Shown here piece after piece: positions 6,522 to 15,547 of a stretch of DNA of 15,547 nucleotides. Numbering within the stretch: the stretch's first letter is position 1; each line of letters opens with the position of its first letter. The position numbers and the translations under genes are program-made. This stretch comes from Methanosarcinales archaeon (lineage in GTDB: Archaea > Halobacteriota > Methanosarcinia > Methanosarcinales > Methanocomedenaceae): assembly GCA_030610815.1 (NCBI GenBank), contig JAUWRA010000044.1, positions 1 through 15,547 on the forward strand, read 5' to 3'. Under the pieces are notes generated by a model. The model did not search any database. It was not told where the DNA came from and saw only the letters and a list, made by a program, of their open reading frames with translations.

Positions 6522-6715
6522 ATAGTAATTTTTAATCTGGAAACATCCTGATCCTGATCAACGATGGGGGTGAAAAGCAGTTGTACTTTTAGCCGTACTT
6601 TTTCAAAACTTTGATGATTCAATACATTGTTAAAGAAACTGAGCAATTCACCCGATTATTGGATCGATCTAAATTATGGTGGTATAGTATTAAAAAAGAA
6701 GAAAAATTCTCACTA

Positions 6716-8452
6716 ATGGAAAAACATGAAAAAAAAGTAATTTTCACAATCGTAGTTATTAGTATCCTTTTTTTACTTTTAATTGTCTTTATGGGAATAA
6801 AAACCCACAATGATCTGGATGAAGTTGTAAAGCAGGAATTCAATAAACAACAATTGCTCCTTGTCAAGCAGTTTTCAACTGGTGTAGAGGAATTCCTGAA
6901 TGAAAAAGTTGAATTGACAGAATCAATAGCCCGAAACCATGCAAATGATTCTCCTGAGGAATTCCAGGCATTATTTATAGATATCTACGAAGGTAGCACA
7001 GGTTATTATGCCCTGGAGTACATCAATGCCAGTGGTGTGGTTGTTGCAGGTTATCCGGAAGAAAATGTTCCTATTGGATATAACCTGTATGAAAATAACA
7101 GGGAATATCCAATTGAACATGCCAGGGACACCAGGGATGCATATTGTACGAATCCGGTTGATCTTTTTGAAGGGGGTCTTGGTTCGTTTATCTGGGTCCC
7201 GATCTTTGATGGAGAGGAGCATAAAGGAACCATACTTGGGATAATACGAATCTCCACCCTGGTAGAAAAATATCTCGAACATAACGATTCTTTCTGTTAT
7301 GTATATCTTGTTGACAGGAACACACAGGTATTGTATGATGGGTCCGGGCAATATACTGCAGGAGATAATTATTTTGATATGCTTAATGAATCAAATCCGG
7401 AATGGATGCACATCATAGAAGAACAGTTGAACGGGGCAGAAGGAACTGCAGAATTTACTCTAAATGGAAAATACAATACATCAGAAAACCAGATGATAGC
7501 ATTCTCACCTATAGAGTGGCGGCGGCGGTTATGGTCAGTGGCGATTGTATGCCCTTCTGAAAAAGTTGAAGAAATTGTAAACCCAATATTAGTGAAACAT
7601 ACACTCCTCGTATTATTCTCTGCCAGTATCACCTTGCTGGGTGGATTCTCCCTTATCCTGCTGCTTACAAGCTGGAACAGATCCCTGAAACTTGAAGTTC
7701 ACAATAAAACCTATGAACTCAAGCAGTCCAATGAATTCCTGGAAAAGGCAAACCAGAAGCTAAAGGAACTGGATGGATTGAAATCCGATTTTGTTTCCAT
7801 GGTTTCGCATGAACTCAAAATGCCCCTTACCGCTATAAAGACTTCAACCGAACTGTTAAAAGATGCTGACGAGAACGAATTGATCGATAAAGATGAATTG
7901 ATCGAGAAGATACTGCGAAATGTTGACCGCCAGACACGTATGGTCAATGACCTGCTGAATCTTTCCCGGATCGAATCAGGCATGATGAACTTCAATAAAG
8001 AAGAAGTAGATCTACACGAAGTTATCAGTACATCTATCGAGACTATTGAGAAAACCGCCTATGACCTGGGAATAGGTATTTACACATCCGTTCCCGAACA
8101 CCTGCCCGGCATTACTGGAAATAAGGATGCCCTTGTATCCGTATTTGTAAACCTGTTGAATAATTCCCTGAAATTCACTCCATGGGGGGGCAGGATCGAT
8201 ATTGACATCGTGGAACTTGACCAGTATATACAGGCCACTGTAAAAGATAATGGAATTGGACTGGGAACTGACGATATTGGAAAAATATTTGAAAAATTCT
8301 ATCGGGTGGGTAATGATATATACAATGATACCATCGGGACGGGTCTGGGTCTTGCCATCGCAAAAGGGATTGTTGAAGGGCATGGAGGTTCGATTGAGGT
8401 AGAAAGCAAGGAAGGCAAAGGTATAACATTTACCTTCACAGTAAAAAAGTAG
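6716..8452 (+). CDS. Sensor histidine kinase with an extracytoplasmic Cache-like domain, HisKA and HATPase_c
   Basis: The ORF is open from TTG 6611 / ATG 6614, but ATG 6716 (MEKHEKKVIFTIVVISILFLLLIVFMGI) places a TM helix at the N-terminus as expected. A second TM (LLVLFSASITLLGGFSLILLL) follows. Other motifs: H-box SHELKMPLTAI, N-box NLLNNSLKF, G1 DNGIGL, G2 GTGLGLAIAKGIVEGHGG. Confidence 0.9.
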   Translation: MEKHEKKVIFTIVVISILFLLLIVFMGIKTHNDLDEVVKQEFNKQQLLLVKQFSTGVEEFLNEKVELTESIARNHANDSPEEFQALFIDIYEGSTGYYALEYINASGVVVAGYPEENVPIGYNLYENNREYPIEHARDTRDAYCTNPVDLFEGGLGSFIWVPIFDGEEHKGTILGIIRISTLVEKYLEHNDSFCYVYLVDRNTQVLYDGSGQYTAGDNYFDMLNESNPEWMHIIEEQLNGAEGTAEFTLNGKYNTSENQMIAFSPIEWRRRLWSVAIVCPSEKVEEIVNPILVKHTLLVLFSASITLLGGFSLILLLTSWNRSLKLEVHNKTYELKQSNEFLEKANQKLKELDGLKSDFVSMVSHELKMPLTAIKTSTELLKDADENELIDKDELIEKILRNVDRQTRMVNDLLNLSRIESGMMNFNKEEVDLHEVISTSIETIEKTAYDLGIGIYTSVPEHLPGITGNKDALVSVFVNLLNNSLKFTPWGGRIDIDIVELDQYIQATVKDNGIGLGTDDIGKIFEKFYRVGNDIYNDTIGTGLGLAIAKGIVEGHGGSIEVESKEGKGITFTFTVKK

Positions 8453-8456
8453 CATT

Positions 8457-8666
8457 ATGATCGTACAGGAAGATGCTGAGGATTTCAATGAACTTGACAG
8501 GAAGATCAAGGAGGAAGCCGGGAAGAGGACTGATTCTGTCCTTGTCTGCCCCCAGTGCAATTCGACAAACGTCACGTATTACATGGGTCTCAAGACCGGT
8601 GTCCAGTACCAGTGCAAGGAATGCGACTACGTGGGTGCATTTATTATTGAAAGGGACAAAGAATAG
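8457..8666 (+). CDS. Small (69 aa) Zn-ribbon protein, unknown function
   Basis: It starts 4 nt after the kinase stop. Two CxxC pairs are present (CPQCNS ... CKECDY). The gene is short, so coding status is moderately supported. Confidence 0.5.
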   Translation: MIVQEDAEDFNELDRKIKEEAGKRTDSVLVCPQCNSTNVTYYMGLKTGVQYQCKECDYVGAFIIERDKE

Positions 8667-8821
8667 AACCGACAAGAAAATCCTCTGTTCGGTCGGATCA
8701 ACTTGACCAGATGATCTTATAGATCATTTACTACGAGAAAGGTATAACAAGTCATACAAAATAAATACAAAAGTTTTTTTACATAAAAGCCTTCAATGGA
8801 AGGATGAGGAGATAAAACAAA

Positions 8822-9133
8822 ATGAATGCAGAAATCGAAAAATGGGCTTCACAACAGGACTTACTTGCACTGCTATACTCACTGATCCTGGCAATAGTAT
8901 CCACTGCTGTTATCTGGATACTTGATAAGTTCATGTTCAAGCATACGGATTTCAATCCGCTGACCGAGGTCCAGTTCTATGGTGTTCTTTTTATCGTGGT
9001 TTTTGGCTTAATTGCGGGTCTTATGTTTTATAGGGAAACGAAAGAGACTACAGAAAAAGTGAGTGAGTTCAGGACCAAGATGGACAAGAAAAAGCTGAAA
9101 AAATCCAAAAAGGCAAAGGCCCGGTCCCGATAA
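8822..9133 (+). CDS. Small membrane protein (2 predicted TM helices, Lys-rich C-terminal tail)
   Basis: A purine-rich ggatgaggag lies upstream of the ATG. Hydrophobic segments are LLALLYSLILAIVSTAVIWIL and FYGVLFIVVFGLIAGLMFY. The tail is KKKLKKSKKAKARSR. Confidence 0.55.
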   Translation: MNAEIEKWASQQDLLALLYSLILAIVSTAVIWILDKFMFKHTDFNPLTEVQFYGVLFIVVFGLIAGLMFYRETKETTEKVSEFRTKMDKKKLKKSKKAKARSR

Positions 9134-9138
9134 ATCTT

Positions 9139-10266
9139 TTATTTTTCAAGTATTGTTATTGTACTTCTCTCACCCACACTCAATTCCACTTCGTCATTCC
9201 ATCCTGACTTAGCATAGCAGTCGGTCACCTGCAGTTTAGTCCCGATGTCTATCTCATCTATGATCCCGGTCTGCTTATCCCAGAGTGCAGTCTTTATCCT
9301 GCCTGAATCATCTGATAAGTGGATGTTCACTACCCTGCCACTTGAGCCGTCCTTGCGCTGGAATTCCCTCAGTTCATCAAGCCCTGTAACATATCCTATA
9401 ATGCTGTATGACTCATTGATCTCGATATCACCAATGAGGGTGATCATCTCACTGAACTCCACCTGCTTACTGGTCTTTTTTATTGAGCTGTTATTTCCCA
9501 GGTTGACCTCCACCTGGTTGTTGAAGGAATTCTCTTTTGAATAGCCTCCGGTTATTTCTATGGTGTCACCCAGGTTCAACTGATCGACTTGTTCCACATT
9601 TTCATCCCATAACGTGAGCCTGATCTTACCTGTGGGGTCGCCCAGTGTCAGGTTCCTGACCTTGCCAGTAGAATTATCCTTTCGCTGGAATGTCCGGGTA
9701 TCTGCCATGTCCAGTATCTTTCCTATCAGGTGTATATCGCTCATACCCGCTTTTATCTCCTCGATACGGTAGGGTTCTGTCCTTACCCTGATCTCTTCAC
9801 TCATGGCCACTTTATCCACACTGCCGCCCCTGCCAACACTGACCTCAAGACCATTACGCCCCTCCCTGACAAGACCGGATACCTGGACTGCATCCCCAAA
9901 TACGATCTCTCCTACCTGTACCAGGTCGGCAGCACTTTCCCATAGCACGACCCTGATAGAACCAGTTTCATCCGCAACTGTCAGGTTGGCAACACTGCCT
10001 GTGGAACCGTCCTCACGATTGAATTCCCTGGCATCTGAACATGCCGTGATCTTGCCCACTATCGTAACATTAGAATTATCAAGTGTTACTTGTCCTATCT
10101 TTACCTTATCATCGTACTCGCCCATATCATAGATCACAAGGGTTGCAAGAGTTTTATCATCCGGAAGTCCGCCCAGGAGTTGTTTCTTCTCTTCCATCCG
10201 GGCAAGGAAATCTTCCATGCTCATGCGGTCTTTTACTTTCTCATATATTTCGGTTATTTCATCCAT
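9139..10266 (-). CDS. rpa: RPA-like single-stranded DNA-binding protein with three tandem OB folds
   Basis: Three internal repeats share the pattern (R/T)xF(N/Q)R(E/K)DGS(T/S)G-V-N(L/I)-(L/V)-D-(T/S)G-IR/K--LW(D/E). The ORF is open to 10338, but ATG 10266 (MDEITEIYEKVKDRMSMEDFLARMEEK) leaves a sensible divergent promoter gap to the FKBP gene. Confidence 0.85.
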   Translation of the reverse strand: MDEITEIYEKVKDRMSMEDFLARMEEKKQLLGGLPDDKTLATLVIYDMGEYDDKVKIGQVTLDNSNVTIVGKITACSDAREFNREDGSTGSVANLTVADETGSIRVVLWESAADLVQVGEIVFGDAVQVSGLVREGRNGLEVSVGRGGSVDKVAMSEEIRVRTEPYRIEEIKAGMSDIHLIGKILDMADTRTFQRKDNSTGKVRNLTLGDPTGKIRLTLWDENVEQVDQLNLGDTIEITGGYSKENSFNNQVEVNLGNNSSIKKTSKQVEFSEMITLIGDIEINESYSIIGYVTGLDELREFQRKDGSSGRVVNIHLSDDSGRIKTALWDKQTGIIDEIDIGTKLQVTDCYAKSGWNDEVELSVGERSTITILEK

Positions 10267-10415
10267 AGCTATCCCCGTTGAAAGATTGATTGGAATGAAT
10301 TGATTTAAGACTTTTCTATCGGTCATACATGTCATCAATTGTTGTAAGCTTGTAATGATCTGGCATGGAAATGTTTTTTACCAATCCCGTTATCTTAGAC
10401 CCCGGTGTAATTATC

Positions 10416-11162
10416 ATGACGATCAATGAAGGAGATTTTATTAAAATATCATACACAGGTAAATTAGAGGACGGTACTATCTTCGATACTACAAATGAAG
10501 AGGTGGCAAAGGTCCATAATATATATAATTCCAATGGCAGGTACGGTGGCGATGTGATCATTATTGGTGTGAACCAGATGATCGCCGGTCTTGAGGAAGA
10601 TATAAAAGAACATGAAGCAGGCTATGAAGGGACTGTCACAATTCCACCTGAAAAAGCTTTTGGTGACCGTGATCCCAAATTGCTGAGGGATCTTCCCCTC
10701 AGACGTTTAGAACAGAAACCACATGAAGGGATGATGGTTCAATTCGAAGGCAAACAGGCTAAGGTACTCAAGGTCATGGGACGCCATGCCAGATTGGATT
10801 TCAACAGCCCTATGGCAGGCCAGATGATAACATATGATTACAAGATCGAAGCCGTGCTTGAGGAACTGAAGGAAAAAGCAGTTGGTCTTAGTGCACTTTA
10901 TATGGCCAAGGAAATGGACATCGAGATCGATGGTACTGTTGCCAGGGTCAACGTGCCCCTGGAGTTTAATTATTCACAGCATTGGTTGAACACTAAATCA
11001 CAGCTGGCACTGGATATGTTGAAATATACTGAACTGACAGAAGTGTTATATGTTGAAACTTATACAGAAGAACTGGTAAAGCCTGATTCTGAAGAAGAGG
11101 AGCAATTAGAAGCTGAAGAGTCTGATGAATCCGAATCAGATGAACCGGAAGACTCAGAATAA
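10416..11162 (+). CDS. FKBP-type peptidyl-prolyl cis-trans isomerase, archaeal long type with an acidic C-terminal tail
   Basis: The ORF is open from 10365; the likely start is ATG 10416 (MTINEGDFIKISYTGKLEDGTIFDTT). Later motifs are GVNQMIAGLEEDI and PPEKAFGDRDPKL. The C-terminus is Glu/Asp/Ser-rich. Confidence 0.87.
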   Translation: MTINEGDFIKISYTGKLEDGTIFDTTNEEVAKVHNIYNSNGRYGGDVIIIGVNQMIAGLEEDIKEHEAGYEGTVTIPPEKAFGDRDPKLLRDLPLRRLEQKPHEGMMVQFEGKQAKVLKVMGRHARLDFNSPMAGQMITYDYKIEAVLEELKEKAVGLSALYMAKEMDIEIDGTVARVNVPLEFNYSQHWLNTKSQLALDMLKYTELTEVLYVETYTEELVKPDSEEEEQLEAEESDESESDEPEDSE

Positions 11163-11174
11163 TTAGAAGAACCT

Positions 11175-11195
11175 GGAGAGGAGAAAACCCTCTCC
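11175..11195 (+). terminator. Hairpin ggagagg-agaaaac-cctctcc just after the FKBP stop
   Basis: Perfect 7-bp inverted repeat read from the sequence, followed by T/A-rich sequence. Confidence 0.35.
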
Positions 11196-11200
11196 TTCAA

Positions 11201-11208
11201 TTATATTT
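11201..11208 (+). promoter_or_regulatory. TATA-box-like element (ttatattt) about 22-29 nt upstream of the tRNA-Ser 5' end
   Basis: Sequence and spacing are consistent with an archaeal TATA box at about -26 relative to a transcript starting near 11230. Confidence 0.4.
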
Positions 11209-11229
11209 GATCCAACCTGAAACAACCTT

Positions 11230-11314
11230 GCTGAGGTAGCCAAGCGGACCACGGCGCCGGTCTTGAAAACCGGTGGTGCACTGCGCCACGGGAGTTCGAA
11301 TCTCTCCCTCAGCG
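11230..11314 (+). tRNA. tRNA-Ser (anticodon UGA), class II with a long variable arm, no encoded CCA
   Basis: Hand fold: acceptor gctgagg/cctcagc plus discriminator g. D arm gcc...ggc. Anticodon stem ccggt/accgg with loop cttgaaa (anticodon tga). Variable arm tggtgc-act-gcgcca. T arm gggag-ttcgaat-ctctc. Confidence 0.9.
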
Positions 11315-11316
11315 TA

Positions 11317-11327
11317 TTTCTTTTTTT
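11317..11327 (+). terminator. Oligo-T tract (tttcttttttt) immediately after the tRNA-Ser
   Basis: Archaeal RNA polymerase terminates at oligo-T runs, and this one sits 3 nt after the discriminator base. Confidence 0.5.
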
Positions 11328-11428
11328 AAGACTATTGTTCTGGTTATTTGTCTTATTCTTTTATGCTTCAAGGCACGTTTGTCACGAACCCCTAACACCG
11401 CTATTATGGTTTGTGCAAGGACAAAACA

Positions 11429-12715
11429 CTAATCAAGAAGCCACTTACAAAGAGAAACATATCTGATGTTCTTCCCGGAAACAATTTCAACCGCCTCATA
11501 ATCCCATGTAATGATCAGCAGATTATCGCATCGAAGTTCCTCTGAACCTTGCAGGAGAGCTTTTACTTCACGCTCTTTCGTCACAAAATCATCAAGCATG
11601 TAACATACCTGTATAAGTTCAGAGACCTTTTTCCCCTCCTTAATGATAAAATCAATTTCCCTGCCAGATGTGGACTTATAGTAAAACAAATCTCCTTTGC
11701 TTCTTCTTTTCAGTTCAATATAAACAATGTTTTCAATAAGCCTCCCATAGTCCTGTATGCCTTGCAGGGACAGTAGTCCATTATCGACAAGATATATCTT
11801 TGATATACTTGATTCTATATTTTTGTAAGAATAAGAGAACCTCTTGAGTGGAAAAACAATAAATGAATCTTCAAAATAACCGAAATATGTATACAACGTA
11901 TTTTTGCTTATCTTATAGCCTTGCGATTTGAGAAAATTATAAAACTTATGGATTGAAAATTCCTTTGAATTGAATATAGCATTAAGAAAGAGTTTCAGCA
12001 TCTTTATGTTTTTCACATCATACCTTTCCACAATATCCCTGAATATTGTCACATCTACTATCTCACTCAATATCCGGTCCCACTCTTCCCTGTAACGCAC
12101 TGTTTCAGGAAACCCGCCGTATCTGACATAATCTTCCAGTTTTTGGATTATTTCCCCCATCTGCGCTGATGAAAGATATTCTTCATACTCGAGTTTGCCT
12201 GCTTTAAGGACTTCGGCAAAAGAGAAGGGATATACATTGTATGTCAGGCTTCTTCCCCTCATGCTCGTGGCGATCTCTTTACTCATAAGCCTGGATGATG
12301 AACCAGTGACAAACACATTGACATTTTCCATATCAACAAGTGTCCTTACAAATCGTTCCCAATCAGGGATTACCTGTATCTCATCAAGGAATACCCAGGT
12401 TTTTTTATTCCTGTCAGGATAAATCTCAAAAAATACTTCAAGAAGTGTGTTCAGGTCTTGTGACACTGCACCCACCAGTCTTGAATCTTCAAAGTTCACA
12501 TACAATATACTGTTTTTATTTTCTTTACGCGCTAAAAGCTCTTTGATTCCCAGATACATGAGATATGTCTTACCTGACCTTCTGGGACCTGAAAGAACAA
12601 CAGCTCTGTCCAATGGGATGTCAAGAGGATAGTGTATATCCCTCTGTACAATGTCGGGATATCGCCTTTTCTGGAAATCTTTAATTATGTTTCCCCAGAG
12701 TGTCTTTGAGATCAT
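11429..12715 (-). CDS. AAA+ superfamily ATPase of the COG1373 type (AAA_14 N-domain plus DUF4143-like C-domain with a PD-(D/E)xK-like signature)
   Basis: The 428 aa ORF has Walker A GPRRSGKT and Walker B VFLDEIQ. The C-terminal region ENIVYIELKR ... GREIDFIIKEGKKVSELIQV resembles the nuclease-like DUF4143 core. Confidence 0.85.
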   Translation of the reverse strand: MISKTLWGNIIKDFQKRRYPDIVQRDIHYPLDIPLDRAVVLSGPRRSGKTYLMYLGIKELLARKENKNSILYVNFEDSRLVGAVSQDLNTLLEVFFEIYPDRNKKTWVFLDEIQVIPDWERFVRTLVDMENVNVFVTGSSSRLMSKEIATSMRGRSLTYNVYPFSFAEVLKAGKLEYEEYLSSAQMGEIIQKLEDYVRYGGFPETVRYREEWDRILSEIVDVTIFRDIVERYDVKNIKMLKLFLNAIFNSKEFSIHKFYNFLKSQGYKISKNTLYTYFGYFEDSFIVFPLKRFSYSYKNIESSISKIYLVDNGLLSLQGIQDYGRLIENIVYIELKRRSKGDLFYYKSTSGREIDFIIKEGKKVSELIQVCYMLDDFVTKEREVKALLQGSEELRCDNLLIITWDYEAVEIVSGKNIRYVSLCKWLLD

Positions 12716-12766
12716 AGTATTGTATAAGGGGAAATAATTAATAAAAGTTTCCCCTTATAGAATACT
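12716..12766. promoter_or_regulatory. 19-bp imperfect inverted repeat (18/19) with an AT-rich 13-nt loop, directly abutting the ATPase start codon
   Basis: The left arm agtattgtataaggggaaa (12716-12734) pairs with the right arm tttccccttatagaatact (12748-12766). The loop is taattaataaaag. Confidence 0.45.
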
Positions 12767-12788
12767 ATTGTACCTGGCCACCAGCAGA

Positions 12789-13034
12789 TTATATCAATAT
12801 CTGCACTGAACTGCCGCCGCTATCGGCGCAGCCTACTCCCGGCATTGCCGGGATAAGGATTTCTGTAGCTTCAGCCAGCAATTCTTCCCCGTATTCCCTG
12901 TACTGCCATTCCCTTGCCTGTGGTTGTAGCCCCACACCCACCAGCGGCCCATAGACATGGAGTTCCCGCACCAGGGCCTCACCCTCAGGCTCAGGACTGT
13001 GCGGGGCATCGGGATACCTCAACCAGGAACCACG
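12789..13034 (-). pseudogene. 5'-truncated remnant of an Elp3-like (radical SAM/GNAT tRNA modification enzyme) gene, C-terminal GNAT portion only
   Basis: The ORF-track peptide GSWLRYPDAPHSPEPEGEALVRELHVYGPLVGVGLQPQAREWQYREYGEELLAEATEI matches the conserved Elp3 C-terminal block RELHVYG...QHxGxGxxLLxEAExIA. Only about 80 codons are present, so most of the gene, including the radical SAM domain, is missing. This stretch is noticeably more GC-rich than its surroundings. Confidence 0.6.
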
Positions 13035-13170
13035 TTGCTGAGGTGGCCAAGCAGACCACGGCGCCACGAGAGTTCAAATCTCTCCCTCAGCGTCTTTCCT
13101 TTTTACGACTATTGTTCTGGTTATTTGTCTTTTTCTATTATGCTTTGAGGCACGTTTATCACAGACACCG
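13035..13170 (+). repeat. Copy B of the duplicated tRNA-Ser segment (pseudo-tRNA plus about 78 bp of downstream flank)
   Basis: Roughly 85-90% identity by eye to copy A outside the 29-nt deletion. Homology ends at 13170, one base before the stop codon of the first AT-rich cassette gene. Confidence 0.85.
13037..13092 (+). pseudogene. Degenerate tRNA-Ser copy lacking the anticodon arm and variable arm (29-nt internal deletion)
   Basis: The sequence is gctgaggtggccaagcagaccacggcgcc|acgagagttcaaatctctccctcagcg. The acceptor, D and T arms align to 11230-11314 with a few substitutions. The missing 29 nt are bounded in the intact copy by a direct gcgcc repeat. Confidence 0.8.
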
Positions 13171-14202
13171 TTACACTCTGTCATTATCTTTCCCATGTTT
13201 TTTTTGGTGTATGGATAATTTATTATACAATTTAAATGAAAATATCAATGAAAATATCAATGAAAATATCAAAGGTATTAATAGTTCCAATAGTGTTCCA
13301 AACTTCCTGTCTATAACTTCTTCAACTGGATCTATAAATTCGGATGAAATAGTAAATATTACATCAAATATTACAAACAGTGTTAATAATAAAATCCCAG
13401 TTTCTACTTCATGTATTTTAGTAAGAATATCACTTTGAGTTTCAACTGCTTTGATTTGTGCAGATGATAATTTGTTTTGAATTTCGATTAAATCCATATG
13501 TCTATGATCTAAAAGATTATTTATTGCTAACATTTTCATTTTAAATAATCTAGGGAATATTTTCGACGCTGGACAATCAAGTAGATGAAATTTATAACCC
13601 CAGAAGACTTTTATGACATCTTGTTGGTTAATTTGTTTGCTTTCATTTCTCAAGAACTCATGTTCCATTGAGTGGGCTAGTAAAGATAAGGTAAGTAATG
13701 CAATAATATTATCCTTTATTTTTTTAGTTAATTCATCATCATAGGTGATTATTAAATTAAAACATAAATCTTTCACGATATGAAATTCATTTTTTTCATT
13801 AATTTCAGAGTAAAGATAATTAAAGTCATCCAATACTTCATTATTTTCAACAATTCTTAATAAATATTTTTGAGTATCTTTTGAACCAAACACACCACAT
13901 TCATTTTTGTATTTGAAATAAATTTCATTGCTATCGATAAAATCTTTATATATGTATTCTATATCTAAACATTCAAACACAAAAATTGCAGAATTTAATT
14001 TTTGGTGTTTTCGACAAGTAATGAGCCATTTATTTCCATTTAAATTAATTGTTTTACTATATTTATCGTAATGTGTATAAGGATTGGATGGAATCGGACC
14101 TTTTTTTTCTGCAACTTCCCAACCATTTTCCTCTGGATTAATATCAAAATCTTTTTTTTGAGGTAAAAGTGGAATAATATATAAAAATATATTTTTAGTC
14201 AT
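13171..14202 (-). CDS. Unknown protein: soluble N-terminal domain (~265 aa) plus two C-terminal TM helices and a basic tail (CorA-like topology, no GMN motif)
   Basis: 343 aa, very Asn/Lys/Ile-rich. TM1 is GILLLTLFVIFDVIFTISSEF (about 13336-13404), followed by the acidic loop DPVEEVIDRK. TM2 is LLELLIPLIFSLIFSLIFSF (about 13225-13302), with tail HQKKHGKDNDRV. Its ATG overlaps the upstream gene's stop (ATGACTAA, 14195-14202). Confidence 0.75.
   Translation of the reverse strand: MTKNIFLYIIPLLPQKKDFDINPEENGWEVAEKKGPIPSNPYTHYDKYSKTINLNGNKWLITCRKHQKLNSAIFVFECLDIEYIYKDFIDSNEIYFKYKNECGVFGSKDTQKYLLRIVENNEVLDDFNYLYSEINEKNEFHIVKDLCFNLIITYDDELTKKIKDNIIALLTLSLLAHSMEHEFLRNESKQINQQDVIKVFWGYKFHLLDCPASKIFPRLFKMKMLAINNLLDHRHMDLIEIQNKLSSAQIKAVETQSDILTKIHEVETGILLLTLFVIFDVIFTISSEFIDPVEEVIDRKFGTLLELLIPLIFSLIFSLIFSFKLYNKLSIHQKKHGKDNDRV
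13235..13270. repeat. Perfect 12-bp tandem repeat x3 (aatgaaaatatc) inside TM2 of the 343-aa ORF
   Basis: Read directly from the sequence. On the minus strand it encodes the reiterated LIFS units of LIFSLIFSLIFS. Confidence 0.95.
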
Positions 14203-15304
14203 TTGAAAATTCCATTAATTTTATTTCAGGCATTGAACTCGTGAACCAATCGTTTATTGCTGATTTTAAATTTTGATTATTTTTTATTTCAAATGAAATT
14301 GTTTGGCTCTTGACAATATTCAACACTTCCTTAAATAGACTCTTATTGCAATTGAGATGTGAACACGTTAAACAAACATTCATAGTTTTACTGACCCCCA
14401 GAGAACAGATAGGAAGAAACTCAGATAGGTCAAATTCTTCATAACTATTTTCAGATTTTTCAGATTTTAAACATTGTTTTGGTGGATAAAACATATTATT
14501 AGTTGTTATTAATTCAACAAAATTACCATCGTGCATTTTTGTTATTTTGACACAAAAATTACTTGCGCCGTTTACTATTAAATTCTTTTTAATCGGATAG
14601 AATTTTTCCATTTCGTCTTTAAAATGGCCCAGATTGAACAAGTTATCTACTTTAAAAAAAATACTCATTTTATATCCATTAATTTCCTCGCTTTGCACAT
14701 CTAATTCTTTCTTGCTATGAGGTATATGCCAAGGCATAACAAAGACTTTGTAACCCACTGGAAATTCTCTTATTGTTGAAATAGGTAAAAATGAATTATG
14801 GTGTACATATGCAAGCGTTTTGAAGGATTTTACGCAACTACTACTCATTTTCATCAATTCATCCTCAAGAAAATGTACACGTGTTGCACCAGTTAGGTTA
14901 TCATCCATTATTAAAACATTAAGTGGATTATCTCGACTCTCAGATAATTCTTTTAAATCGTTCATTAAAATTTGTCTAATGTCTGTCATTTCATGAAGTG
15001 ATGTTGGATGATCCATTACAAAACAAGGATTGTTTTTTTTACAGGTAAATCCTTTTGGAATTGGACGAACACAAGCTTTATCTATGTTTGAATACTCAAG
15101 GATTGTATCTTTTAACAGACACGCAAATGAATATGCAAGAATTGTACCTCCTCTAGAAAAGCCTAAGATTACATCGTAAGAATCTTTTACCAATTCTTCT
15201 TTATTAGATTCTATATAAGATTCTAGATTTTTTCCAAAATCTATCCACTTTTCATAAAATATATCTCCATCAGTTTTTCGATAGTTACCACTCAAATTAT
15301 TCAA
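14195..15304 (-). CDS. Phosphoribosyltransferase (type I PRTase fold)-like N-domain fused to an unknown ~170-aa Cys-containing C-terminal domain
   Basis: 369 aa with a TTG start. DVILGFSRGGTILAYSFA resembles the PRTase flexible-loop region. NVLIMDDNLTGATR (14879-14920) resembles the PRPP-binding loop VLIVDDxxDTGxT. VFVMPWH resembles the FPWE-type end of COG2236-like PRTases. The C-terminal domain contains C-x10-C-x2-C-x4-C (14348-14407). Confidence 0.7.
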   Translation of the reverse strand: MNNLSGNYRKTDGDIFYEKWIDFGKNLESYIESNKEELVKDSYDVILGFSRGGTILAYSFACLLKDTILEYSNIDKACVRPIPKGFTCKKNNPCFVMDHPTSLHEMTDIRQILMNDLKELSESRDNPLNVLIMDDNLTGATRVHFLEDELMKMSSSCVKSFKTLAYVHHNSFLPISTIREFPVGYKVFVMPWHIPHSKKELDVQSEEINGYKMSIFFKVDNLFNLGHFKDEMEKFYPIKKNLIVNGASNFCVKITKMHDGNFVELITTNNMFYPPKQCLKSEKSENSYEEFDLSEFLPICSLGVSKTMNVCLTCSHLNCNKSLFKEVLNIVKSQTISFEIKNNQNLKSAINDWFTSSMPEIKLMEFSND

Positions 15305-15328
15305 CTCTAGTAATAATTTTATAGCAGA

Positions 15329-15547
15329 TCAAGAAGCTTTCCGAGAGTATTTGGATAGATAAATTGCTCCACCATCTTCTCTATAAATTTTTTCGAAATT
15401 GTTCAAAATTGCATCCCCTGAGTACTCCAATTCGGCTATTATTGACATCATAATATATTCGTCTGAAACGTCAAACTCCTTACACAGTTCATAGATTGTT
15501 TTTCCCTCGGTGGTAAGTCCTTGTTTGACCTGTTCTTTCAAATCCAT
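15329..15547 (-). CDS. Small (72 aa) probable winged-helix DNA-binding protein
   Basis: KTIYELCKEFDVSDEYIMMSIIAELEYSGDAIL has the helix-turn-helix plus wing pattern of small wHTH proteins (FeoC/MarR-like). The ATG is the last codon of the window, so the true N-terminus could lie further upstream. It is co-directional with, and in the same frame as, the PRTase-like ORF. Confidence 0.55.
   Translation of the reverse strand: MDLKEQVKQGLTTEGKTIYELCKEFDVSDEYIMMSIIAELEYSGDAILNNFEKIYREDGGAIYLSKYSRKAS

Follow-up and report, generated by a model that had tools for sequence, protein, structure and literature searches.

A candidate conflict module in methanogenic and methanotrophic archaea: an accessory three-gene cassette encoding a divergent phosphoribosyltransferase-fold protein

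Phosphoribosyltransferase (PRTase)-like proteins are components of several described conflict systems. In type III retrons (III-A1 to III-A5), such a protein is accompanied by a separate or fused winged-helix protein (PMC7736814), and the PRTase-like effector of Retron-Eco11 depletes phosphoribosyl pyrophosphate (PRPP) upon activation (PMC12746101). The ShosTA toxin contains a non-canonical PRTase domain, and its toxicity requires PRPP binding (PMC12961424). We analyzed a 15,547-nucleotide (nt) stretch from a Methanosarcinales archaeon (GenBank assembly GCA_030610815.1, contig JAUWRA010000044.1), referred to below as the window, which carries a cassette of three genes, g1, g2, and g3. Arguing from sequence, and with moderate confidence, we interpret this cassette as a self-contained, horizontally acquired conflict module of methanogenic and methanotrophic archaea, most probably one that is directed against viruses or mobile elements and acts by abortive infection.

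The cassette and its relation to PRTase-based conflict systems

The three genes are co-directional and fill the segment of the window from 13171 to 15547. Their features, numbered along the window, are as follows.

15329-15547, minus strand: g1, a 72-amino-acid (aa) open reading frame (ORF), the partner of g2, with an invariant YREDGGAI motif near its C terminus
14195-15304, minus strand: g2, a 369-aa ORF with a TTG start
14705-15304, minus strand: PRTase half of g2 (residues ~1-200), a divergent type I PRTase according to AlphaFold2 (AF2) and Foldseek
14195-14692, minus strand: C-terminal half of g2 (residues ~205-369), an alpha/beta domain with five conserved cysteines, from alignment and AF2
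14195-14202, minus strand: ATGACTAA, the 8-nt overlap of the g2 stop and the g3 start
13171-14202, minus strand: g3, a 343-aa ORF with a soluble N-terminal part and two C-terminal transmembrane helices
13333-13401, minus strand: transmembrane helix 1 of g3 (residues ~268-290; Kyte-Doolittle peak, 2.27)
13222-13296, minus strand: transmembrane helix 2 of g3 (residues ~303-327; hydropathy peak, 2.40)
13235-13272: AATGAAAATATC, a perfect tandem repeat (12 nt x 3.2) inside helix 2 of g3, detected with Tandem Repeats Finder

The AT-rich segment consists of these three ORFs only. Its GC content was 28.3% as opposed to 44.7% for the remaining window, in line with the AT-rich composition reported in the initial annotation, and the minimum among same-size windows outside the cassette was 39.5%. 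The GC content of third codon positions was 18-36% in the cassette genes versus 39-58% in the neighboring genes. Both the composition and a strong Asn/Lys/Ile bias of the encoded proteins had been read as signs of horizontal acquisition. The GC contrast stands, whereas the amino acid bias proved to be merely modest, with a combined share of 22-29% in the cassette proteins versus 14-22%.

The compact operon that had been described was recovered as well. The frames of g2 and g3 overlap by 8 nt, and the gap between g1 and g2 is 24 nt, or 33 nt if the database start of g2 is used; this gene call (P0001, 366 aa) begins at the next TTG, three codons downstream. Thus arranged, g3 is predicted to be translationally coupled to g2. 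A GGAGGT sequence was found 8 nt ahead of the g1 ATG (read in L001); the upstream stretch available in L001, 216 nt long, was AT-rich and contained no further gene. The contig stops 327 nt past g1. In an exact-sequence look-up, the 366-aa call of g2 was on record from a 1.6-kb Logan contig, and no record was returned for g2 with the first TTG start or for g3.

The AF2 model of g2, built with 35 sequences, had a predicted local distance difference test score (pLDDT) of 84.5 and a predicted template modeling score of 0.78. When compared with the PDB using Foldseek, residues ~1-200 matched the archaeal purine PRTases 4zfn and 1vdm (E = 5e-6; target template modeling score, 0.6-0.7). Sixty-eight matches were obtained at E <= 1e-3, and the best 50 of these 68 all had the type I PRTase fold, comprising purine PRTases, PyrR, and one ppGpp-binding protein. 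Structural matches of g2 in BFVD were viral PRTases. The motifs of g2 are F-S-R-G-G (residues 49-53), V-L-I-M-D-D-N-L-T-G-A-T-R (130-142), and M-P-W-H (190-193). Throughout the g2 family, the loops FSRGG and VLIMDDNLTGATR are conserved, and F-[ST]-R-G-G at the pyrophosphate-loop position, DDNLTG[AS]T in the PRPP loop, and MPWH are near-invariant. The PRPP loop of g2 (DDNLTGAT) is one residue shorter than the canonical one. In Pfam, g2 of the window fell below significance; a distant member of the family, P0076, cleared the gathering score of PF00156 (27.1 versus 26.3 bits). As modeled, the N-terminal half of g2 belongs to the type I PRTase superfamily, at the level of the fold only, and its PRTase pocket appears to be under selection.

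The secondary structure of the C-terminal half of g2 was confidently modeled by AF2, and no match in Pfam, PDB sequences, or Foldseek covered it. Its conserved cysteines (C278, C300, C311, C314, and C319) are found in YPPKxC, LCS, and CxxCxxLNCN motifs. Because a CxxC is placed at the start of a helix, the cysteine-rich domain is predicted to bind a metal, probably zinc. This five-cysteine domain is a new domain.

The domain logic proposed in the initial annotation comprised a small winged-helix regulator, a PRTase-like protein with an additional domain, and a two-helix membrane protein. Its second and third parts were recovered. For g1, in contrast, the winged-helix matches were all marginal: a PHROG transcriptional repressor (E = 0.011), the winged-helix region of UFL1 (E = 0.17), and, for single members of the g1 family only, MCM4_WHD (E = 0.009) and HTH_24 (E = 0.12). 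Thus, g1 is possibly a winged-helix protein.

In g3, a soluble part of ~260 residues is followed by two C-terminal hydrophobic helices. At a transmembrane threshold of >= 1.6 in a 19-residue Kyte-Doolittle window, both helices were called in g3 and in six of seven locus-derived homologues, with only one segment called in L031. The segment of helix 1 was found in all of the g3 homologues tested. A word-indexed search, profile included, returned at least 8-9 g3 homologues. The tandem repeat in helix 2 amounts to one extra LIFS unit relative to homologues that are 85-88% identical; it could have arisen by slippage and could alter the length of the helix. A transporter had been considered as an alternative identity of this protein, and g3 was not recognizable as one: it has two C-terminal helices only, with no family or structural match. 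Having only two helices, g3 is not a permease.

With type III retrons the cassette shares a PRTase-fold protein that has a PRPP-type loop, a small putative winged-helix protein, and a mobile defense context. The pairing of PRTase-like and winged-helix proteins in retrons, mentioned in the initial annotation, is documented in the literature (PMC7736814). Unlike type III retrons, the cassette has no reverse transcriptase and no PADLOC match, and it differs from them in its shorter PRPP loop, cysteine-rich domain, two-helix partner, and archaeal hosts. A reverse transcriptase was found neither in the cassette nor in the 216 nt upstream, and no RVT family was listed in the syntenic loci. In an Rfam scan covering 11000-15547 (E <= 1), tRNA was the only RNA returned, a result that is weak for msr/msd since Rfam covers few retron RNAs; to that extent, the earlier observation of no reverse transcriptase or msr/msd in the window holds. 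The retron motif Gx14PNNxP (PMC12746101) occurred in 0 of 35 g2-family members. ShosTA and PsyrTA (RqlHI) likewise include a PRTase-domain protein, but the cassette has no PADLOC match and is composed of three components, among them a membrane protein and a cysteine-rich domain. No DprA-like ORF, the kind of antitoxin found in ShosTA/PsyrTA, was present among the ORFs of the window. By its gene content and motifs, the cassette would not be classed as a retron or as a member of ShosTA or PsyrTA.

The closest structural relatives of g2, the archaeal purine PRTases of P. horikoshii (1vdm) and S. solfataricus (HGXPRT, 4zfn), have a D-V-I-x-G-x-x-R-G-G loop and an acidic-pair PRPP loop that are comparable to those of g2. 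In contrast to these enzymes, to which it is 18-22% identical, g2 has an added domain of ~165 residues and is accessory and mobile. With respect to the Hpt, Gpt, and Apt equivalogs, g2 had no NCBIfam match, an accessory distribution, and the additional C-terminal domain.

A word-indexed search returned 36 full-length relatives of g2. When 1.84 billion cluster representatives were searched exhaustively with an HMMER profile, 34 g2-family matches and zero ordinary PRTases were returned at E <= 1e-3, which makes the family very rare. The suspicion that g2 might prove to be an ordinary salvage enzyme was allayed by this result and by the lack of an NCBIfam or Pfam match. Nothing significant was found for g1, g2, or g3 among the Pfam, NCBIfam, PADLOC, and PHROG models, and the cassette thus continues to match no named system. 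At E <= 1 in PADLOC, g2 was unmatched, and the sole match of g1 was DndC at chance level. PDB sequence searches with profiles of the three proteins and with P0076 gave only marginal or chance matches.

Recurrence, variants, and genomic context

The order g1-g2-g3, with overlapping g2 and g3 frames, recurred in more than 10 distinct contigs, and all three proteins were homologous across the syntenic loci. The overlaps between g2 and g3 spanned 4-11 nt in L002, L010, L028, L029, and L031. Co-location of the three genes elsewhere, which the initial annotation had named as a test of its proposal, was therefore found in many unrelated contigs, with the gene order and the overlap of the g2 and g3 frames preserved. 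The full trio was present in the following contigs.

Methanothrix contigs: L002-L008 and L033-L035
Anaerobic-digester contigs: L009-L015 and L037
Further contigs: L028, L029/L030, L031, L036, L038, L039, and L040

In L040 (1647-2793), the g2 homologue is split into overlapping ORFs of 210 and 183 aa within an otherwise intact trio; the split probably reflects a frameshift, a pseudogene, or an error in sequencing.

At almost every locus, g1 and g2 were found together. The most conserved of the three proteins was g1, with 55-63% identity across loci as opposed to 42-46% for g2 and 27-33% for g3 (the values for g1 and g3 refer to their syntenic partners in L002 and L010). The YREDGGAI motif was invariant in 8-9 divergent g1 homologues, even where g2 was only 32% identical.

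Several loci departed from the trio. In L026 and L025, g1 is followed by a g2 to which ~185 or ~270 residues are fused C-terminally, and no g3 was found; the L025 contig ends 16 nt behind g2, so a downstream g3 is possible there. The C-terminal extensions of P0078, P0083, and P0085 showed no Pfam, PDB-sequence, or g3 homology. The ~270-residue extension of P0083/P0085 (L025, 174-1982) contains a conserved F-x-A-D-F-D-T-G-N-P and, later, A-F-V-G-R-Q. These motifs recall retropepsin-like aspartic proteases; Pfam and PDB sequence searches found nothing.

In L018, from a Methanothrix metagenome-assembled genome (MAG), a single 553-aa gene (1275-2936) encodes a g2 homologue to whose N terminus a TIR_2 domain (E = 1e-28) is fused, and the locus contains neither g1 nor g3. 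The fusion protein has lost otherwise invariant PRTase residues (R51E, R80I, T141I/R142C, and H193A) and one cysteine. Decay of the PRTase only in the TIR fusion fits a catalytic or signaling role for this domain in the other versions. The fusion gene forms an islet of 31-38% GC in DNA of 62-66% GC, between deaminase and methyltransferase genes. Its TIR domain resembles those of the TIR immune proteins TIR-APAZ, known from short Argonaute systems, and ThsB, matching the PADLOC models Aga_TIR (2e-22) and ThsB (4e-6). Unlike TIR immune systems, L018 has no Argonaute or ThsA partner, and the TIR domain is found in L018 only and not in the window.

Two distant loci, L041 and L042, have a longer g1 on the opposite strand and no g3; the g1-like gene of L041 (122 aa) is divergent. 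In L041 (7598-10025 and 11201-11833), a protein with CARF and winged-helix domains overlaps the start of the g2-like gene by 4 nt and matches CARF3 (5e-19) and CasR (5e-10) in PADLOC. No CRISPR array was found on the L041 contig. A PNP_UDP_1 nucleoside phosphorylase is encoded 1.2 kb downstream, and a ThiF/E1-like gene lies 5 kb upstream.

The variants (fusions, TIR, and loss of g3) point to g1 and g2 as the core and to the third part as exchangeable. A core with an exchangeable output part is a pattern typical of immune systems. Like the effectors of two-transmembrane (2TM) systems, such as retron type IV/Ec48, CBASS, and Pycsar, g3 is last in the operon and interchangeable with TIR. It differs from them in that the helices are C-terminal, behind the soluble part of ~260 residues, and that neither a cyclase nor a reverse transcriptase accompanies it. 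In the PADLOC scan, the cassette matched no CD-NTase, cyclase, SAVED, SLOG, or STING model.

The Methanothrix trio is an islet of 31-35% GC within DNA of 60-64% GC, and sharp AT-rich islets were seen in three host backgrounds. In L009, the trio lies inside an element that opens with a tRNA-Leu, an integrase, and Prim-Pol. A second attachment (att) repeat of this element was sought within the contig and not found, the other end lying beyond the contig. In L029, the trio is located ~570 nt downstream of a tRNA-Leu. From these compositions and locations, we infer that the cassette is accessory, horizontally acquired, and mobile.

No relative of the cassette was found in IMG/VR, among the INPHARED phages, or among the PLSDB plasmids. 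The GTDB species genomes contained three loci, two of them on short contigs in bacterial bins. The 3.0- and 3.8-kb trio contigs L016 (CAYQSO010000086) and L017 (CAYMAX010000096) are binned as Saccharibacteria and Muribaculaceae MAGs, and L017 shares an identical g1 with the digester element L009/L010. A bacterial host seems less likely here than mis-binning.

Genes related to defense systems were found beside the cassette. Directly behind the trio in L009 lie genes for a type III methyltransferase (E = 5e-166), a ResIII enzyme, and an HNH protein. The neighbors include a GajB-like UvrD/PD-(D/E)xK protein in L031 (E = 8e-83), a BrxP-like PAPS-reductase in L026 (E = 2e-87), a protein resembling type III restriction enzymes and bearing a TnsA-like endonuclease domain in L038, and a PDC-S01-like ATPase in the window itself (E = 3e-104). 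This neighborhood is suggestive of a role in defense.

The tandem tRNA-Ser locus of the host

The proteins encoded next to the cassette (FKBP and Nre) group with those of ANME-2 (anaerobic methanotrophic archaea)/Candidatus Methanocomedens and of other Methanosarcinales MAGs. The following features border the cassette.

11229-11315, plus strand: intact tRNA-Ser(UGA), the first unit of the tandem array (ARAGORN; Rfam, 55.4 bits)
~13036-13170, plus strand: degenerate tRNA-Ser(UGA) copy 2, the left border of the AT-rich insert (alignment)
11229-13170 of the window, 10859-12755 of L019, and 5997-9897 of L021: tandem tRNA-Ser array
11429-12715, minus strand: AAA_14/DUF4143 ATPase beside the tRNA-Ser, PADLOC candidate defense family PDC-S01 (E = 3e-104)
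12860-13024: ELP3-like fragment (165 nt, 91.5% identical to internal ELP3) inside the minus-strand ORF at 12789-13067

Contigs of close relatives are collinear with positions 6629-13065 of the window at 95% identity. At the same tRNA-Ser locus, g1-g2-g3 was absent from these relatives, with flanks 95% identical; as had been anticipated, the cassette is accessory rather than core. The ANME-2 relatives carry two to three intact tRNA-Ser(UGA) genes in tandem, each with a conserved 3' flank of ~85 nt. In copy 2 of the window, 29 nt (the anticodon arm) are deleted and ~85 nt of the 3' flank are retained; this copy was not called by ARAGORN, and its equivalent in the relatives is an intact tRNA-Ser.

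Homology to the tRNA-Ser copy ends at the g3 stop codon (13171-13173), give or take a few bases, so the boundary placed there by the initial annotation is accurate at that resolution. Its description as a classic site of accessory DNA calls for a qualification, the cassette occupying a slot in a tandem array rather than a simple att site. In the relatives, the cargo differs from one tRNA-Ser copy to the next: two kinds are AAA_14/DUF4143 ATPases, and a third is an AAA_16/nSTAND3-like ATPase. The slot behind copy 2, where the cassette starts, is occupied in L019 by a STAND-type ATPase. The varied cargo of the relatives and the position of the cassette behind copy 2 mark it as accessory DNA in a variable hot spot and not as a simple attL/attR insertion. 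The locus looks like a cargo-exchange hot spot made of repeated tRNA units. No integrase was found in the window.

The PDC-S01-like AAA_14/DUF4143 ATPase was kept at this site in all relatives examined. The relatives have an intact ELP3 gene (radical SAM/acetyltransferase) 2 kb beyond and the same ELP3-like fragment just before tRNA-Ser copy 2. Truncation of ELP3 by the cassette was rejected, given that the relatives with an intact ELP3 also carry the fragment. Since it is shared by the window and the relatives, the fragment is an old duplicated scrap.

Functional readings of the cassette

In the conflict module that we favor, g1 and g2 would form a sensing and switching unit. Upon infection, the PRTase pocket of g2 would bind or convert a phosphoribosyl compound (PRPP or a nucleotide), and this event would release or activate g3. 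Active g3 would then damage the membrane and arrest the growth of the infected cell. As for g1, it may be a regulator that binds DNA or a partner with an inhibitory function. The conflict or defense interpretation given in the initial annotation is supported, and we infer a defense function from sequence comparison and genomic context.

Several points weigh against this interpretation. A killing role for g3 draws on its membrane helices and the swap pattern only. The AF2 model of g3 is poor (pLDDT, 60), and g3 had no family match, no PDB-sequence match, and no recognizable effector fold, all of its Foldseek matches being noise (E > 0.01). The TIR-g2 fusion was found in one MAG contig only. Defense neighbors were present in approximately 7 of 11 contexts, an anecdotal count with no enrichment statistic, and the Methanothrix locus has none, being flanked by MutS/MutL and, on the opposite side, by an MFS transporter. 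The contig ends before the far border of the insert is reached, and additional partner genes may lie beyond it. The roles could also be reversed, the PRTase being toxic by analogy with Retron-Eco11 and ShosT and g3 serving as an anchor or a second effector.

Such a reversal is taken further in a rival account that we regard as unlikely, in which g2 would drain PRPP or perturb nucleotide pools, g1 would be its antitoxin or repressor, and g3 would be an anchor or a second toxin. The cassette would then be mainly a toxin-antitoxin or addiction module that stabilizes mobile elements, with antiviral effects being secondary. Known PRTase-domain toxins do need PRPP binding (PMC12961424) or lower PRPP (PMC12746101), but g2 is unlike the retron, ShosT, and PsyrT models, and the retron motif is missing from it. 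The small size of g1, its upstream position, and its pairing with g2 would suit an antitoxin, although it would be unusual for an antitoxin to be the most conserved of the three proteins. The module is carried on an integrated element, and the loss of PRTase residues coincides exactly with the presence of TIR, which is likewise a metabolite-depleting toxin domain, as expected if g2 were the toxin. It is g3 and the fused extensions, on the other hand, that vary as effectors usually do.

A signaling function is doubtful. Here, g2 would make a PRPP-derived messenger or phosphoribosylate the YREDGGAI loop of g1, and the soluble domain of g3 would sense the product and open a pore; with its two-helix effector, a scheme of this kind would formally parallel CBASS, Pycsar, or Thoeris. 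No PRTase is known as the maker of an immune messenger, and the argument is drawn purely from patterns of conservation. These patterns are that the catalytic-type loops are strictly conserved in every version that retains g1 together with an output domain, be it separate or fused, and that they decay only in the version that carries a fused TIR, itself a nucleotide-processing enzyme, and has lost g1 and g3. A CARF protein, a sensor of cyclic oligonucleotides, is translationally coupled to a distant g2. The ~260-residue cytosolic part of g3 ahead of the helices might be a receptor, but it shows no recognized ligand-binding fold, and the fused output domains of P0078 and P0083 need no diffusible signal. 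It is improbable that the cassette represents a PRPP-based signaling branch of archaeal immunity that gates g3, with the TIR and CARF variants reflecting kinship to nucleotide-signaling systems.

Ordinary metabolism, with g2 as a purine or pyrimidine salvage PRTase accompanied by a regulator and a membrane protein in incidentally AT-rich DNA, is very improbable: housekeeping archaeal enzymes (HGXPRT and purine PRTases) do give the best structural matches, and one distant locus (L041) has a nucleoside phosphorylase 1.2 kb away, but g2 of the window has no NCBIfam or Pfam match and carries an additional cysteine-rich domain, its family comprises 34 representatives in 1.84 billion proteins with ordinary PRTases unretrieved, the cassette is missing from close relatives and forms sharp AT-rich islets in three hosts, a TIR fusion exists, and g3 has two helices only.

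Apart from CRISPR and restriction-modification, little of archaeal immunity has been charted. Archaea of the ANME and Methanothrix groups are central to the methane cycle. If the cassette is indeed a conflict module, it would constitute a third independent PRTase-based conflict lineage, after type III retrons and ShosTA/PsyrTA. It would bring new parts, namely, the cysteine-rich domain, the membrane protein, and the strictly conserved small partner, with neither a reverse transcriptase nor a DprA partner. The natural swap among the membrane protein, the fused domains, and TIR would provide an experimental handle for separating sensor from effector. It may thereby help to ask what the PRTase pocket contributes to immunity, be it PRPP depletion, ligand sensing, or signal synthesis.

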